From the UHGV virus genome UHGV-0092341: a stretch of DNA of 31,377 nt; one strand, given 5' to 3'. The DNA comes from a virus. The notes beneath the pieces were generated by a model, which saw nothing but the letters and a program-made list of their open reading frames with translations, had not been told where the DNA came from and searched no databases. Numbering within the stretch: position 1 is the stretch's first letter; each line of letters begins with the position of its first letter. This document shows, piece after piece, positions 19,853 through 25,867 of the stretch. Made by a program: the position numbers and the translations under genes.

Positions 19853-20103
19853 TGAAAGAATACCGCTATTCCGGCCCGGCCAGCGGCGTCACGCTGTCGG
19901 ACGGAACCGAAATCCTGCTCTGGCCGGGGAAGACGGTTTCCCTGCCGGAGGAGCATGACTACGTGAAGGTACTGGTGGCGCTGAAACATCTGACGCCGGT
20001 ACCTGAAGAGACTAAACCCGCCGGCACACCGGCTGTGCAGTCACCAAAGCGCAGAAGCAGCAGTGACAGCGAAGTGAAAACGGAGGACACCCATGGCAGC
20101 TAA
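19849..20103 (+). CDS. small hypothetical protein (84 aa)
   Basis: ORF in track; overlaps neighbours at both ends. Confidence 0.45.
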   Translation: MMKEYRYSGPASGVTLSDGTEILLWPGKTVSLPEEHDYVKVLVALKHLTPVPEETKPAGTPAVQSPKRRSSSDSEVKTEDTHGS

Positions 20104-21520
20104 CTATCTGCATGGTCCCGAAACCATTGAGGTGGAAAACGGTGCCCGCCCGGTTAAAACGGTGAAATCTGCCGTTATTGGCCTGATTGGTACCGCCCCG
20201 ATGGGGGATGTCAATACGCTGGTACAGTGCCTGTCTGAGAAAGACGCAGCGGCATTTGGCAGCCAGTTCACCGGCTTTACCATTCCGCAGGCGCTGGATG
20301 CGATTTATGACCATGGTGCAGGTACCGTTCTGGTCATTAACGTCCTCGACCCGGCGAAACATAAAACGGCGATCGAGGATGAGGTGGTTACCTTTGACAA
20401 ATCGACAGGGCAGGCCAGACTGGCGCATCCGGTTGTCGCTAATGTGGTGGTGAAAAACAGTGAAGGCAGCACCTCCCACACGGCGAACACGGACTACCGT
20501 GTTGATGCGCAGGCGGGTGTGCTCACGAACCTGGGCAAGGCTATTGAGGCCGGTGGCAGCGTGAAGGTGAGCTATGAGTACGCGGACCCGTCGAAGGTGA
20601 CTGCGGCGGACATCATCGGCGGGGTGAACAGCGCCGGAAACCGAACCGGCATGAAGCTGCTTAACGACAGCTTCAACCTGTACGGCTATTTCGCCAAAAT
20701 TCTGATTGCGCCGGTGTTCTGCACCCAGAAGAGTGTCGCAGTTGAGCTTATCGCCATGGCAGAGAAGCTGGGCGCGGTAACCTACATTGATGCGCCTGTC
20801 GGTACCACCTTTGCACAGGCTCTGGCAGGTCGTGGCCCGGAAGGCACCATCAACTTCAATACCAGCTCCGACCGCGTCCGTCTGTGCTATCCGCATGTGA
20901 AGGTATATGACCCGGTGACAAACACAGAGCGTCTGGAGCCGCTCAGCCAGCGTGCAGCAGGTCTGCGTGCCAGAGTCGATCTGGACAAGGGCTACTGGTG
21001 GTCATCCTCCAATCAGGAGATTCTGGGGATCACCGGCGTGGAGCGCCAGCTGTCCGCGATGATTGATGACCCGCAGAGTGAGGTGAACCTGCTTAACGAA
21101 CAGGGGATCACCACGGTATTCAGCAGTTACGGCAGCGGCCTTCGTCTGTGGGGTAACCGGACGGCAGCATGGCCAACGGTCACCCATATGCGTAACTTTG
21201 AGAACGTTCGCCGCACCGGTGATGTGATCAACGAGTCCATTCGTTATTTCAGCCAGCAGTACATCGACATGCCGATTACTCAGGCGCTGATTGATGCACT
21301 GACGGAGTCGGTCAACGCCTACGGTCGCAAAATGACTGGTGATGGTGCGGTACTGGGCTTCCGTTGCTGGTTTGATCCGGCCCGCAATCCGGAGACGGAG
21401 CTGGCCGCCGGGCACCTGTTGCTGAGCTACAAATATACGCCACCACCGCCGCTGGAGCGACTGACGTTTGAGACTGAGATCACCTCGGAATACCTGTTAA
21501 CCCTGAAAGGGGGCAACTGA
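20093..21520 (+). CDS. contractile tail sheath protein (Mu L / P2 FI-like)
   Basis: 475 aa; SD ACGGAGGA upstream; immediately followed by tube gene. Confidence 0.8.
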   Translation: MAANYLHGPETIEVENGARPVKTVKSAVIGLIGTAPMGDVNTLVQCLSEKDAAAFGSQFTGFTIPQALDAIYDHGAGTVLVINVLDPAKHKTAIEDEVVTFDKSTGQARLAHPVVANVVVKNSEGSTSHTANTDYRVDAQAGVLTNLGKAIEAGGSVKVSYEYADPSKVTAADIIGGVNSAGNRTGMKLLNDSFNLYGYFAKILIAPVFCTQKSVAVELIAMAEKLGAVTYIDAPVGTTFAQALAGRGPEGTINFNTSSDRVRLCYPHVKVYDPVTNTERLEPLSQRAAGLRARVDLDKGYWWSSSNQEILGITGVERQLSAMIDDPQSEVNLLNEQGITTVFSSYGSGLRLWGNRTAAWPTVTHMRNFENVRRTGDVINESIRYFSQQYIDMPITQALIDALTESVNAYGRKMTGDGAVLGFRCWFDPARNPETELAAGHLLLSYKYTPPPPLERLTFETEITSEYLLTLKGGN

Positions 21521-22041
21521 TGTCAAAGATTGAGATAAACCGCATCACGAATGCCAACATCTATCTGGATGGTACTAACCTGCTGGGACGGGCTGAGGAA
21601 GTTAAACTCCCCGATGTCTCCATGATTATGCAGGAACACAAGGCGCTGGGGATGGTGGGTAAGGTGGAACTCCCGGCTGGTTTTGACAAACTGGAAGGCG
21701 AAATCAAATGGAACAGCTTTTACCGCGATGCGATGCTGTCTGCCGCGAACCCGTACAGGTCGCTGGCACTGCAGTGTCGTTCCAGCGTCCAGCGCTACAG
21801 CTCGCAGGGGCTGATTGACGAAATCCCGCTGGTCACCTTCCTGACGATTATGTTCAAGAAGAACCCGCTGGGGACGTTCAAACAGCACGAGAACGCCGAG
21901 TTCTCCAGTAGCTTCACCTGCACGTATATCAGACAGGTACTGGATGGTGAAGAGCTGCTGCAACTGGACTATCTGGCCAACATCTTCCGGGTCGGCGGTG
22001 TTGATCAACTGACTGACTACCGTATCAATATCGGGGGCTGA
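21520..22041 (+). CDS. tail tube protein (Mu M / P2 FII-like)
   Basis: 173 aa, overlapping start with sheath stop; typical size and position. Confidence 0.75.
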   Translation: MSKIEINRITNANIYLDGTNLLGRAEEVKLPDVSMIMQEHKALGMVGKVELPAGFDKLEGEIKWNSFYRDAMLSAANPYRSLALQCRSSVQRYSSQGLIDEIPLVTFLTIMFKKNPLGTFKQHENAEFSSSFTCTYIRQVLDGEELLQLDYLANIFRVGGVDQLTDYRINIGG

Positions 22042-22043
22042 CG

Positions 22044-22325
22044 GTGAGTGTTGAACTGACGGATAAAGGAGGACGATGTGCGGCACTGGGCATGTCAAAT
22101 GGTACGTGGTTTACCCTCCTTGATATTCCGGGGGTGGAAACCCTTTTTAATACCCGTAAAACCAATGACCCGATTGACTGCACACGTTCAAAGGCCCGCA
22201 AACTGGCGGATTTGATTGAAGCATGGGAGCCTCCCGACCACTGGTTCTCCGGCATCGGCAAATCTGAGGGAAAGACGCTTCTCATCGCTTTCCTGCGTAA
22301 CTGCAAGGGGTTTCGCACTTGCTGA
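22044..22325 (+). CDS. uncertain ORF (93 aa, GTG start)
   Basis: No convincing RBS/start combination (SD AAGGAGG is 3 nt from an out-of-frame ATG and 19 nt from the in-frame ATG 22092). Confidence 0.3.
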   Translation: MSVELTDKGGRCAALGMSNGTWFTLLDIPGVETLFNTRKTNDPIDCTRSKARKLADLIEAWEPPDHWFSGIGKSEGKTLLIAFLRNCKGFRTC

Positions 22326-22331
22326 CATCAC

Positions 22332-22357
22332 AGGGGCTCCGGCCCCTTCTTCTTAAT
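22332..22357 (+). terminator. terminator-like hairpin (AGGGGC-TCCG-GCCCCT) followed by TTCTTCTT
   Basis: Read directly; overlaps upstream edge of the late-promoter motif at 22349. Confidence 0.4.
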
Positions 22358-22422: not shown

Positions 22423-22758
22423 ATGTCACAGACCCCATCCGATACTTTTAAATTGTCTTATCCCTTCACCACTGCTGCAGGCACCAGAATTGAGCTGGTT
22501 GAACTGAAACGCCTGACGGTAAAAGACCTGAAGCAGGTGCGCAAAATCAGCAAAAACCCGGCAGACTGGGACGAACCGCTGATTGCCCGCAGTACTGGTC
22601 TTCTCCCGGAAGATCTCGACAATATGGATCTGGCTGATTACCTGCAGTTACAGAAACGATTTCAGCTCATCACGGGGATGGGTGAGAGCAACCAGGGCGC
22701 TGACGCAGGCGCAGGGGCTGCTGGCGAGATGGTTCCGGTTTCAGCCGGGGGAGATTGA
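22423..22758 (+). CDS. tail assembly chaperone (P2 gpE-like)
   Basis: 111 aa acidic protein just upstream of tape measure; SD CAGGAG; overlapped at 3' end by a protein-like ORF in the +1 frame. Confidence 0.6.
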   Translation: MSQTPSDTFKLSYPFTTAAGTRIELVELKRLTVKDLKQVRKISKNPADWDEPLIARSTGLLPEDLDNMDLADYLQLQKRFQLITGMGESNQGADAGAGAAGEMVPVSAGGD

Positions 22759-22840
22759 TGCCCTCGATACTGACGATCTGGAGATGTGGCTGGAGCAGGC
22801 TGAAGAGCAAATAAAAAGCGAGTACGGCGACAAATCATAG
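22748..22840 (+). CDS. frameshift extension of tail chaperone (E'-like), +1 frame
   Basis: +1-frame reading ...GEIDALDTDDLEMWLEQAEEQIKSEYGDKS is protein-like; the -1 frame has a stop at 22683. G5 run at 22747-22751 is a possible slip site. Confidence 0.4.
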   Translation, partial: GEIDALDTDDLEMWLEQAEEQIKSEYGDKS

Positions 22841-22915
22841 TACAGACAGCCGCCAGTAGCGGCTGTTCTGCGTTATCCCCTCACGTCTTTTCACCTTCCC
22901 CGGAGGTTAACCACT

Positions 22916-25867
22916 ATGTCGGGACAGTTTTCAGTCGGCGTTGTTATCGGCGGGATGATTGGTAGCACATTCCGTTCTGCAATGAGCGGTACCCGCCGTG
23001 CGCTTGATTCCCTGAGCGATACCTCACGCCGCCTGCAGGAACGTCAGAACGCTTTAACCCGTGCAACAGAACGTTATGGTCAACTGGGTTCTTCCCGGAT
23101 GCAGCATCTCAACAGCGAGCTGCTGCGGGTAAGCCGCACCATGGAGCAAATTGAGCGCCAGCAGCGCCGTCTGTCAGCGGCATCCGCTACCAGTGATGCG
23201 CTGAAAGCTAACCGCATGGCGCTGTATGGTCAGGGGATTGAAGCGTATGGCATGGCACAGACTGTTTATCATACGGTTTCCCCTGCCGTTCAGCAGTCCA
23301 TGTCTTTTCAGGACAAAATGATTGATATGTCGATCACCGCAAAATATGACAATAAAACGCGGGATGGACTTGCCGGACAGATAAAAGGCTGGGCGCTTAA
23401 ATACAATCAGTATCAGGATGAGCTGCAGGAGGCGGTGGGTTCACTCATCAGCGACAATATTGATAATGTGTCAGATATCGGTTTTCTGATGCCGGATATT
23501 GCCCGCGCGGCAACGGCAACACGCACGTCTGCTCAGGACTGGGCAAAAGTGGCCGCAGTCTGGCAAAACTCCCTGAAAGGTGCGGCCAGAGATTTTGGTG
23601 CCGTTCAGAATATTATGGCTTATGCCGGTGACCAGGGGTCATTTGAAATCCCGGATCAGGTCAAGTGGATGCAGTCCCTGGCCCCAATGATGGCGGGTAT
23701 TGCCAGTGGAAAAGAGGCTGTTGCTGAAATCGGGGCCAGTCTCCAGATAGCAAAAATCGGTGCAGGTTCCACCGACGAAGCAGCCAATAATTTTAAAAAC
23801 TTTCTTACCAAAATTTTTGCCCGCGATACTCAGAAACAGTTTGCTGATCTGGGTATTGATTTGCAGGGATCTATTGCGAGTTATAAAGCTGCGGGGATCT
23901 CTCCGATTGAAGGGATGTTGAGTGTTATAGAACGTTACCTCAATGCCAAAAGCCCCGAAGCGCTGGCCGGCTTCAAATCAGCCATGAAAATAAAGAATGA
24001 TACGGCAAGAGATGAGGCACTTCAGGCTCTGGCGAAAAACTTTGGTCTGGGCGATATGTTCGCGGATATGCAGGTCATGGCATTTATCCGCCCGATGCTG
24101 GCCAACATGGACAGATATCGAGAGATCCGTGCCGGTGCTCTCAGGGCTGCGGATAACGATTTGCTTGCCAGTGCTTATGATCAGCGGCTGAAATCTCCCC
24201 TTGAAGCCACTAAAACACTTATGGTCAGCAGTCGCGATCTGGCAATTACGCTGGGCGATCAATTAGCTCCATCTTTTATTTCTTTGACTCAGGAACTGCT
24301 TCCACTCATTCAGGGGGCAAAACACTGGGTAGCGACTCACCCGCAATTTGTCAGTGGGGCTTTTAAGCTCATCAGTGCGCTCCTTGCGATTAAGATAGCG
24401 ACTGTTGGTCTCAAACTGGGGCTGAATCTCCTTATTTCCCCCTTTGTAAGTGTCTGGAAAAATGCTGTTTTACTTCGGGCCAACTGGCTTCGTCTGTCGC
24501 TCGCACTGGGGCAAGGCGGTAAGCTCCGCTGGCTGGTGACCGGATTTAGCGCCGTCGCCAGAGGAGCCAGAACACTGAGTGGCGTGCTCTCCGGGGGGCT
24601 GGTTCGCGGAATTATGCTCGCCGGACGTGCTGTTCTCTGGATTGGGCGTGCGCTGATGATGAATCCCATCGGTCTCGTTATCACCGCTGTCGCGGCAGCA
24701 GCTTACCTTATCTACCGCAACTGGGGGGCAGTCAGTGGCTGGTTTAAACAGCGCTGGGCAGACATTCAGGAAGCCTTTAACGGCGGCATTGTGGGAATTG
24801 GTAAGTTACTGATTAACTGGTCGCCGGCAGGCCTGCTCTATAAAGCCTTTGCGGCTGCGCTGAAATATTTCGGCGTTGCTCTGCCGGCAAAGTTCACCGA
24901 CTTCGGTGGCCATCTTATCGACGGTCTGATTAACGGTATCAAAAACAAATGGGGGTCGCTCAAATCCAGTGTAACCGGAATGGGTGACAGCATCAGTAGC
25001 TGGTTTAAACAGTGCTGGGCTGACATTCAGGAAGCCTTTAACGGCGGTATCGCGGGAACTGGTAAGCTGCTGATTAACTGGTCGCCGGCAGGTCTGCTCT
25101 ATAAAGCCTTTGCAGCTGCGCTGAAATATCTTGGTGTTGATCTGCCGGCAAAGTTTACCGACTTCGGTGGCCATCTTGTCGATGGTCTGATTAACGGTAT
25201 CAAAAACAAATGGGAGTCGCTCAAATCCAGTGTAACCGGAATGGGTGACAGCATCAGTGGCTGGTTCAGCGAAAAGCTGGGCATTCATTCGCCGAGCCGC
25301 GTGTTTATGGGCTTTGGTGACAATATCGCGCAGGGGGCCGCCATTGGCCTGCAGCGGACCACTCCGCTTGCAGCTCTGGCCGGGCAGCGAATGGCCAGTG
25401 AACTGCTCCCCAGAATGCCCGTGAGCATCCAGGGGCCAGAAATACGGGATAACACTTCAGGTGTTCGCTTCAGTATGCCGTTGCCCGATATCAACGGGTT
25501 TATGTCGTCTGCTAAAAATGCGATCGGAGCCGTAATCAATAGTTTGTCTTCCATGCCCGTTATTCCGCTCTCCACCCGGGCATCGATTTTACCAGGGCAA
25601 CGTCTGGCAAATGAGATGACACCGGATGTTCCCCGTATCCCCTCGTCTGAAATCCTGGCTGCCGGATATTCAGGCCGTGGTGCAGCTGCAACCGGCGGTG
25701 GAACGTCTGGTGGTATCCAGGTCAGCTTTAATCCTCAGTTTTTCCTCAATGGCAAGGAAACCACAGCGCCTGCAGGACTGACTGGTGCCCTGAATATGAG
25801 TCTGCATGAGCTGGAAAAAATGCTGGAGCGTCTGCTGGCTCAGAAACAACGTAAGGAGTACCGCTGA
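22916..25867 (+). CDS. tail tape measure protein
   Basis: 983 aa, helical N-terminal half, hydrophobic segments, internal tandem repeat; downstream of chaperone pair. Confidence 0.85.
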   Translation: MSGQFSVGVVIGGMIGSTFRSAMSGTRRALDSLSDTSRRLQERQNALTRATERYGQLGSSRMQHLNSELLRVSRTMEQIERQQRRLSAASATSDALKANRMALYGQGIEAYGMAQTVYHTVSPAVQQSMSFQDKMIDMSITAKYDNKTRDGLAGQIKGWALKYNQYQDELQEAVGSLISDNIDNVSDIGFLMPDIARAATATRTSAQDWAKVAAVWQNSLKGAARDFGAVQNIMAYAGDQGSFEIPDQVKWMQSLAPMMAGIASGKEAVAEIGASLQIAKIGAGSTDEAANNFKNFLTKIFARDTQKQFADLGIDLQGSIASYKAAGISPIEGMLSVIERYLNAKSPEALAGFKSAMKIKNDTARDEALQALAKNFGLGDMFADMQVMAFIRPMLANMDRYREIRAGALRAADNDLLASAYDQRLKSPLEATKTLMVSSRDLAITLGDQLAPSFISLTQELLPLIQGAKHWVATHPQFVSGAFKLISALLAIKIATVGLKLGLNLLISPFVSVWKNAVLLRANWLRLSLALGQGGKLRWLVTGFSAVARGARTLSGVLSGGLVRGIMLAGRAVLWIGRALMMNPIGLVITAVAAAAYLIYRNWGAVSGWFKQRWADIQEAFNGGIVGIGKLLINWSPAGLLYKAFAAALKYFGVALPAKFTDFGGHLIDGLINGIKNKWGSLKSSVTGMGDSISSWFKQCWADIQEAFNGGIAGTGKLLINWSPAGLLYKAFAAALKYLGVDLPAKFTDFGGHLVDGLINGIKNKWESLKSSVTGMGDSISGWFSEKLGIHSPSRVFMGFGDNIAQGAAIGLQRTTPLAALAGQRMASELLPRMPVSIQGPEIRDNTSGVRFSMPLPDINGFMSSAKNAIGAVINSLSSMPVIPLSTRASILPGQRLANEMTPDVPRIPSSEILAAGYSGRGAAATGGGTSGGIQVSFNPQFFLNGKETTAPAGLTGALNMSLHELEKMLERLLAQKQRKEYR
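24740..25261 (+). repeat. in-frame tandem duplication inside tape measure gene (2 x 261 bp = 2 x 87 aa)
   Basis: WFKQRWADIQEAFNGG...DSISS and WFKQCWADIQEAFNGG...DSISG are near-identical; second copy starts exactly 261 nt after the first (24740 vs 25001). Confidence 0.85.

Follow-up and report, generated by a model that had tools for sequence, protein, structure and literature searches.

How the second half of an overlapping gene pair is reached by the ribosome is the question raised by the tail module of the virus genome UHGV-0092341, a stretch of 31,377 nucleotides that is referred to here as the window. A preliminary description had recognized a tail chaperone gene upstream of the tape measure gene, overlapped by an extension in the +1 frame, and had proposed that ribosomes enter this extension by slipping one base forward on a run of five G residues (G5) two codons before the chaperone stop. 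The position of the frame change was examined by gathering homologous loci from phage records, from one genome per species, and from IMG/VR, with about 170 relatives compared overall. The features of the locus are collected in Table 1.

The chaperone gene and its overlapping frame

The 111-residue ORF runs from the ATG at 22423 to the TGA at 22756-22758 in the ORF listing. Its assignment as a tail chaperone located 5' of the tape measure gene was borne out by gene order and by a match of residues 8-81 to PF10109, Phage_TAC_7 (chaperones E / 41 / 14), with 74.8 bits and an E value of 5.5e-21. This score exceeds the gathering threshold of the family, which is 25 bits, and the corresponding proteins of 21 out of 21 relatives match as well. 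In RefSeq, the product is named 'phage tail assembly protein'. The gene is preceded by the tube gene (21520-22041, PF04985) and followed by the tape measure gene (22916-25867, PF10145), within a P2-type contractile-tail module that comprises the sheath (20093-21520), the tube, a 93-residue ORF, the chaperone, the tape measure, and gpU-like, X-like and gpD-like genes.

The +1 frame is open from 22583 to the TAG at 22838-22840 and has the C-terminal end ...GEIDALDTDDLEMWLEQAEEQIKSEYGDKS. The G5 run lies in the 0-frame codons GGG GGA, followed by GAT TGA. In the -1 frame, stops are present at 22683 and 22701; the frame is open from there to 22812, a part absent from the preliminary description, and it does not encode the E' domain. 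Canonical -1 heptamers (X_XXY_YYZ) in the overlap were found only in two Pasteurellaceae relatives. The extents of the 111-residue ORF and of the +1 ORF, the location of the G5 run and the -1 stop at 22683 had all been read correctly before. The preliminary description was wrong in limiting the protein-like part of this frame to its last ~30 codons: in the +1 frame, the conserved core of the E' domain (LLARWFRFQP...) starts at 22718, and purifying selection is detected from about 22678. For the two conserved segments of the overlapping ORF, pN/pS values of 0.10 and 0.35 were obtained in the +1 frame, and no start codon is conserved in position. The location between tube and tape measure genes, the protein-conserved second ORF and the slippery sequence in the overlap are features of the frameshifted chaperone pairs G/GT of lambda and E/E+E' of P2.

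The extension is related to the E' domain of phage P2. Residues 100-132 of the predicted fusion match PF06528, Phage_P2_GpE, with an E value of 0.0015 and 18.4 bits, which is below the gathering threshold of 23 bits; among the relatives, 13 of 21 give a match at E values up to 0.01, the best one being 2.9e-7. A profile built from 21 diverse UUU_C fusions aligned with P2 gpE+E' end to end, over 123 columns that include both domains, with a probability of 92.9% and an E value of 3.7e-7. Judged by this alignment, the gene pair is a homologue of P2 E/E+E', the equivalent of lambda G/GT. A profile search of the PDB sequences returned no match at E values up to 1.

Table 1. Coordinates, strand and supporting evidence of the features at the chaperone locus
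Feature	Position	Strand	Evidence or remark
Short tail assembly chaperone, P2 gpE-like, 111 aa, 0-frame product	22423..22758	+	PF10109 match, position, RefSeq
Predicted fusion chaperone, P2 gpE+E'-like, 138 aa	22423..22840, join(22423..22662, 22664..22840)	+	M1-F80 in the 0-frame plus 58 aa in the +1 frame
Proposed +1 shift cassette CGA_UUU_C	22657..22663	+	Invariance, synonymous-site bias, stop bounds, frame switch
Dual-coded linker: 0-frame tail of the short product / +1 linker SSSRGWVRATRALTQAQG, with invariant Trp at 22679-22681	22664..22717	+	pN/pS 0.84 (0-frame) / 0.59 (+1 frame)
E' (GpE) domain core, +1 frame: LARWFRFQPGEIDALDTDDLEMWLEQAEEQIKS	22721..22819	+	PF06528 weak match, +1-frame pN/pS 0.10 over 22718-22753
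G5 run (site of the preliminary description); ordinary coding, Pro-Gly-Glu inside the E' domain	22747..22751	+	Gly codon variable, 0-frame closed upstream in most relatives

Several observations were made on the neighbouring genes of the module. The 93-residue ORF between tube and chaperone (22044-22325) gives a match to DUF7739 that stays below threshold (24.7 bits, the cut-off being 27). Conserved in PhiKM and KP12, the ORF is missing in the Salmonella and Pasteurella relatives, in which the chaperone gene directly follows the tube gene. Between this ORF and the chaperone gene, a terminator-like hairpin (AGGGGCTCCGGCCCCT, then TCTTCTT) is found at 22332-22347, inside what is expected to be a single late tail operon. 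A second hairpin, ACAGCCGC-CAGTA-GCGGCTGT, occupies 22846-22866, just 3' of the E' stop and 5' of the tape measure ribosome-binding site. Its loop reads CCCTC in KP12 and TACTC in Phi06_2974B, and its stem is identical in the former and differs by one base in the latter. As it has no T run, this hairpin may have a role in mRNA stability or processing and not in termination. At 24732-25266, within the tape measure gene, a 261-bp (87-aa) tandem duplication is found whose two copies are 92% identical. In E. coli strain 510016, the tape measure gene has 3213 bp, compared with 2952 bp here, a difference of exactly one 261-bp unit. The number of repeat copies may vary between otherwise identical prophages, and with it, probably, the length of the tail.

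The frame of the extension was compared in the 139 homologous loci of the first search round, many of which are close kin, so that the raw counts overstate their independence. An E'-like extension was found in the +1 frame in 135 of them. Two Pasteurellaceae phages have it in the -1 frame, together with the canonical heptamers A_AAG_GGA and G_GGA_AAG, and in two other loci, both of which look like indels, it is in the frame of the chaperone. A scan seeded with the Pasteurella chaperone, intended to cover a wider -1 group, recovered near-identical copies only, and the -1 side of the comparison consists of two lineages and P2. The 701-bp region of the locus was present in 641 of 5426 complete E. 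coli genomes (about 12%), with at least 99% identity in 584 of them, and it is 99.6% identical to that of Escherichia phage PhiKM. Because of this near identity in 584 genomes and the +1 extension in the great majority of the loci, the +1 arrangement is not a sequencing indel. This is the outcome of the comparison with homologues that the preliminary description had called for, and its placement of the extension in the +1 and not in the -1 frame is confirmed. In-frame fusion ORFs from the protein database (P0001-P0008) were also considered as natural fusions and set aside: they carry homopolymer indels at varied places, several of them in error-ridden assemblies, and thus say nothing about the site of the shift. 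The region, part of an E. coli prophage, was also encountered as a 99%-identical copy on an 8-kb contig from an assembly labelled Arthrobacter sp. GMC3 (L011, NZ_PJIO01000028.1); it is most likely an assembly contamination.

A further possibility is that no frameshift takes place at all, the +1 ORF being either translated from an internal start or not expressed. BcepMu gp42 has been annotated as a separate ORF that begins at an ATG in the +1 frame, and the window itself offers a GTG at 22682 preceded by GGGGA. However, neither a start codon nor a ribosome-binding site is conserved in position, and the GTG of the window is replaced by GCA, ATA, ATC or CTA in relatives. Translation of the +1 frame is evident from the strong purifying selection on it, and the family aligns across both domains with P2 E+E', a product annotated as a -1 fusion and marked as an essential tail protein (PMC3091744). 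Taken with these data, the expression of the extension as an independent gene, or its silence, appears very improbable.

Limits on the position of the frame change

Stop codons in the two frames limit the region in which ribosomes can change frame. On the upstream side, the Ralstonia-like and Komp-like lineages have a TGA in the +1 frame three codons before the codon that precedes a conserved TTT, the Phe codon that corresponds to F80 of the window. On the downstream side, the 0-frame is closed 8-11 codons after this Phe in Bise-like phages, in L060, in P0100 and in a 90-residue allele; the stops come as early as the equivalent of 22690-22693 in Bise, L079/L080 and P0022, and eight codons after Phe in L060 and P0100. 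Because of the +1-frame stops upstream and the 0-frame stops downstream, the shift site would lie within about 22652-22689 (~40 nt), provided that it is conserved in position.

The G5 run is located outside these limits. In its favour, it is present and in phase for a re-pairing of tRNA-Gly from GGG to GGG one base forward (or for a -2 slip from GGA), two to three codons before the stop. Shift sites are usually found near the 0-frame stop (PMC10885494), and the verified -2 shift of Mu uses a G5 run, CGG_GGG. Yet the 0-frame is closed upstream of this position in KP12, in Phi06_2974B, in the 90-residue allele and in most other relatives. KP12 and Phi06_2974B, relatives with 81% identity to the locus, have a 0-frame TAG at the CCG of the window at 22735-22737, four codons upstream of G5, and all four differences within 22729-22740 are synonymous in the +1 frame (AGA>AGG, TTC>TTT, CGG>AGA). 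Measured from the Leu codon that opens LLARWF (22718), the 0-frame stop is placed across the family at +38, +32, +17, -13, -25 or -28 nt. The -25 class is the 90-residue E. coli allele, which arises from CAG>TAG at 22693 (L079, L080) and whose protein (P0022) occurs on more contigs, 914, than the 111-residue form. Since this widespread allele is without them, the last 21 residues of the 111-residue chaperone are probably dispensable.

Conservation of the run itself and of the sequence around it points in the same direction. A conserved G5 that can be reached in the 0-frame, as expected for a Mu-type site, was not found: only 23 of 100 unique relatives with a +1-frame extension combine the run with a 0-frame that is open through it, and many relatives have Ser (AGT/AGC), Val or GGT in place of the Gly codon of G5. 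From 22717 to 22755, the +1 frame has a pN/pS of 0.10 and the 0-frame one of 12, and the +1 frame is under strong selection throughout the 30 nt that precede the run. In the extension of the window, the weak match to Pfam GpE likewise starts upstream of G5, at LARWFRF, and a fusion made at the run would be without LLARWFRFQP, the most conserved part of E'. The junction predicted for such a fusion is ...EMVPVSAGEIDALDTDDLEMWLEQAEEQIK, with ...GAAGEMVPVSAGEIDALDTDDLEMWLEQAEEQIK as the semi-unique junction form. As the site that makes the fusion, the G5 run of the preliminary description is not upheld, and the chance that it holds that role is minimal; a minor additional slip may occur there in this particular phage.

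Two further positions had been guessed from three sequences, a +1 slip on GGG_G (22714-22717) and a -2 slip on GC_GCA (22709-22713). Both were rejected, as 0-frame stops occur at 22690-22705 in other relatives.

Selection changes frame within the limits set by the stops. When column entropy was computed for 91 unique ungapped sequences, variability was highest at 0-frame position 3 up to 22675 and at 0-frame position 1, which is +1 position 3, from 22678 onwards. The Trp codon noted in Table 1 is invariant in the +1 frame. The sliding pN/pS curves of the 0 and +1 frames cross at 22666-22680, and 0-frame synonymous divergence falls from 0.7-0.9 to about 0.3-0.4 around 22648-22671. The linker, taken as 22666-22716, is weakly constrained in either frame (0.84 in the 0-frame vs 0.59 in the +1 frame), and selection alone accordingly places the site no better than to about 20 nt.

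UUU_C as the candidate slip site

Within the bounded ~40 nt, nothing is invariant except the motif CGA TTT C, of which TTT_C is strictly so. Its UUU precedes G5 by 87 bases and the 0-frame stop by ~95 nt. TTT_C occurs in all 135 loci with a +1-frame extension and in neither of the two with a -1-frame extension, and it has been kept in further Ralstonia-like, Pseudomonas and Burkholderia lineages at 59-63% GC. None of the six positions of CGA and TTT exceeds a column entropy of 0.09 bits. Synonymous codon choice is uneven. The Phe codon at the site is TTT in 117 out of 117 unique genes, compared with 43 TTT to 86 TTC (67% TTC) for the other Phe codons of the same N domains. Where the codon before TTT encodes Arg, it is CGA in 101 of 102 cases, as against 40 of 485 Arg codons (8%) elsewhere. 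CGA is replaced by GTG, GCA, GCG, TCC or AAA in some lineages and is therefore not essential.

The stops in both frames, the switch in codon position, the crossing of the pN/pS curves and the conservation at synonymous sites converge on CGA_UUU_C. The fusion protein is probably made by a +1 slip at the conserved UUU_C, in a chaperone pair of the P2 E/E+E' type, a reading to which we assign a probability of about 0.7 on comparative grounds.

The mechanism proposed for this slip is as follows. The majority of ribosomes would read through to the 0-frame stop and release the 111-residue chaperone. A minority would shift by +1 while peptidyl-tRNA-Phe (anticodon GAA) occupies the P-site UUU at 22660-22662. 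The tRNA would re-pair with the UUC at 22661-22663, replacing a G-U wobble by a G-C pair, and decoding would resume at AGC 22664 in the +1 frame and continue to its TAG. The resulting 138-residue product would combine the N-terminal chaperone domain (1-80), a linker of ~18 residues and the GpE/E' domain. If the pair acts like gpG/gpGT of lambda, binding of the tape measure protein might fall to the N domain common to both products, and recruitment of tube subunits to E'. The CGA in the E site, read via I-A wobble, could weaken E-site pairing and favour the slip.

The sequence requirement of known UUU_Ynn sites, a 0-frame UUU followed by a pyrimidine, is present and conserved in the family. UUU followed by a pyrimidine is described as especially prone to +1 shifting in bacteria, even without a stop codon, and +1 shifting is reported to be raised by weak E-site pairing (PMC5009743). 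The same study describes UUU_Y as the proposed site in Yersinia YopN-TyeA and UCC_UUU_CGU as the minimal cassette of influenza PA-X.

The same frame could also be entered elsewhere between 22664 and about 22690, by a +1 shift at lineage-specific sites such as GGG_A (22675-22678), with CGA_TTT_C being kept for reasons of mRNA or protein. Selection on its own would allow this, as it places the switch only to about 22660-22680, and a run of four G residues is present at 22674-22677. But this run is not conserved, the relatives having ACT GGG CTG, ATC GGA TTG, CTT GGG TTG or AGC ATG G, and the bounded region has no other invariant element. Amino-acid constraint cannot account for 100% TTT and about 99% CGA at synonymous positions, and the motif is missing exactly in those relatives that have -1 heptamers. 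A shift at such dispersed sites is considered unlikely.

A -2 shift would lead to the same frame and has been verified for the chaperone gene of Mu in the analogous position. No codon within 22652-22690, however, permits P-site re-pairing two bases back (at GA_UUU, the codon in the -2 position would be GAU), and the single candidate, the GC_GCA rejected above, is downstream of the stop of the 90-residue allele at 22693. Entry by two steps backwards can be given almost no weight. Transcriptional slippage, for its part, is unlikely on a run of three T residues.

The UUU_C slip is not accompanied by a recognizable stimulator. An alignment-based fold of the downstream RNA reached -8 kcal/mol without compensatory pairs, the single-sequence z-score of -0.8 was not better than that of shuffled sequences, and neither a slow or rare A-site codon nor a Shine-Dalgarno-like element was found at the site. 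A high efficiency of shifting is thus not explained. The bases CGAUUUC at 22657-22663 are complementary to GAGAUUG at 22751-22757, 88 nt further on, where E-I-D of the E' domain is encoded, and a pairing of the two was predicted. The two stretches are conserved and under coding constraint alike, and no covariation was observed between them.

Related frameshifting systems and significance

The closest known system is E/E+E' of phage P2, in which a -1 shift at T_TTT_TTG (GGT TTT TTG), within the FETUD operon, is given as verified by the GenBank note and PMC3091744. The two systems share the gene order tube, chaperone, tape measure, U, D and the Pfam families PF10109 and PF06528, and their products are of similar size (91 and 142 residues in P2, 111 and 138 in the window). 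P2 has no downstream RNA structure (PMC3091744), and none was found in the family of the window. About 3 residues separate the slip Phe of P2 from the position matched to F80 of the window, at the end of the N domain; the alignment suggests that the two lineages shift at nearly the same point of the protein and in opposite directions. The direction is -1 in P2 and +1 in the window, and the motif is a tandem-slip heptamer in the former and the tetranucleotide UUU_C after CGA in the latter. The 0-frame continues for 32 codons after the proposed slip site in the window, creating a 96-nt dual-coded overlap, whereas it continues for only 7 codons in P2.

Phage Mu provides a second comparison. Its gp41 / Mu_56 pair is formed by the -2 frameshift at CGG_GGG mentioned above. 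As in the window, the chaperone gene of this contractile-tailed phage lies between tube and tape measure, and the extension is in the +1/-2 frame. In Mu, the slip takes place on G5 eight codons before the 0-frame stop, whereas the G5 of the present family is neither conserved nor reachable in most members. None of the searches performed here returned the Mu chaperone as a sequence homologue.

The known UUU_Ynn sites, in E. coli test genes, YopN-TyeA and PA-X, have in common with the window the P-site codon, the pyrimidine that follows it and the independence from a stop codon. In PA-X, a specific E-site codon contributes as well, and the A-site codon CGU is rare there, in contrast with the common CAG of the window. 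In BcepMu, the sequence TCC_TTT_CGC matches the UCC_UUU_CGU of influenza PA-X in eight of nine positions. The record of this Burkholderia phage, the type phage of Bcepmuvirus (AY539836, L183 6603-7364), contains a chaperone, gp41, with TTT_C, and the E' domain is encoded by gp42 in the +1 frame of gp41. In that record, gp42 stands as a lambda-G-like gene of its own, with gp43 given as the slippage product derived from it. From the comparison, which joins gp41 to gp42, the gp42/gp43 slippage pair appears to be mis-assigned.

Tail chaperones are known to use frameshifts of -1, -2 and +1, and about 350 forward shifts have been annotated in SEA-PHAGES genomes (PMC10885494). The +1 direction alone is not new. 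The preliminary description had regarded a +1 event as a less common variant; its direction stands, and such an extension is not as rare as was suggested, given the verified -2 shift of Mu and the hundreds of forward shifts annotated in actinobacteriophage chaperones. No paper or record describing CGA_UUU_C in this clade was found in open-access text, and RefSeq and GenBank annotate only the short ORF at the locus.

Conserved natural +1 sites in bacteria and phages are few; prfB, YopN-TyeA, some IS elements and a few phage genes are examples, and most of these sites rely on a stop or a rare codon. A bolder proposal, offered tentatively and with clearly less confidence than the slip at UUU_C itself, is that CGA_UUU_C could be a self-sufficient and evolutionarily fixed bacterial +1 cassette, in which the weak E-site CGA might replace stop-codon, rare-codon or Shine-Dalgarno stimulators in the way of UCC in PA-X, and that the P2-E family might have switched between -1 (UUUUUUG) and +1 (UUU_C) at nearly the same Phe codon.

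If confirmed, the locus would represent a +1 site with neither a stop nor a rare codon, fixed across prophages of Enterobacterales, Burkholderiales and Pseudomonas, and it would offer a handy natural system for the study of UUU_Y slippage and of E-site effects. A site about 95 nt upstream of the 0-frame stop can escape predictors that give preference to the vicinity of that stop, and confirmation would also mean that the RefSeq entries limited to the short ORF and the BcepMu annotation should be corrected. If the family did switch direction, its members would provide a natural matched pair for understanding what sets the direction of frameshifting.
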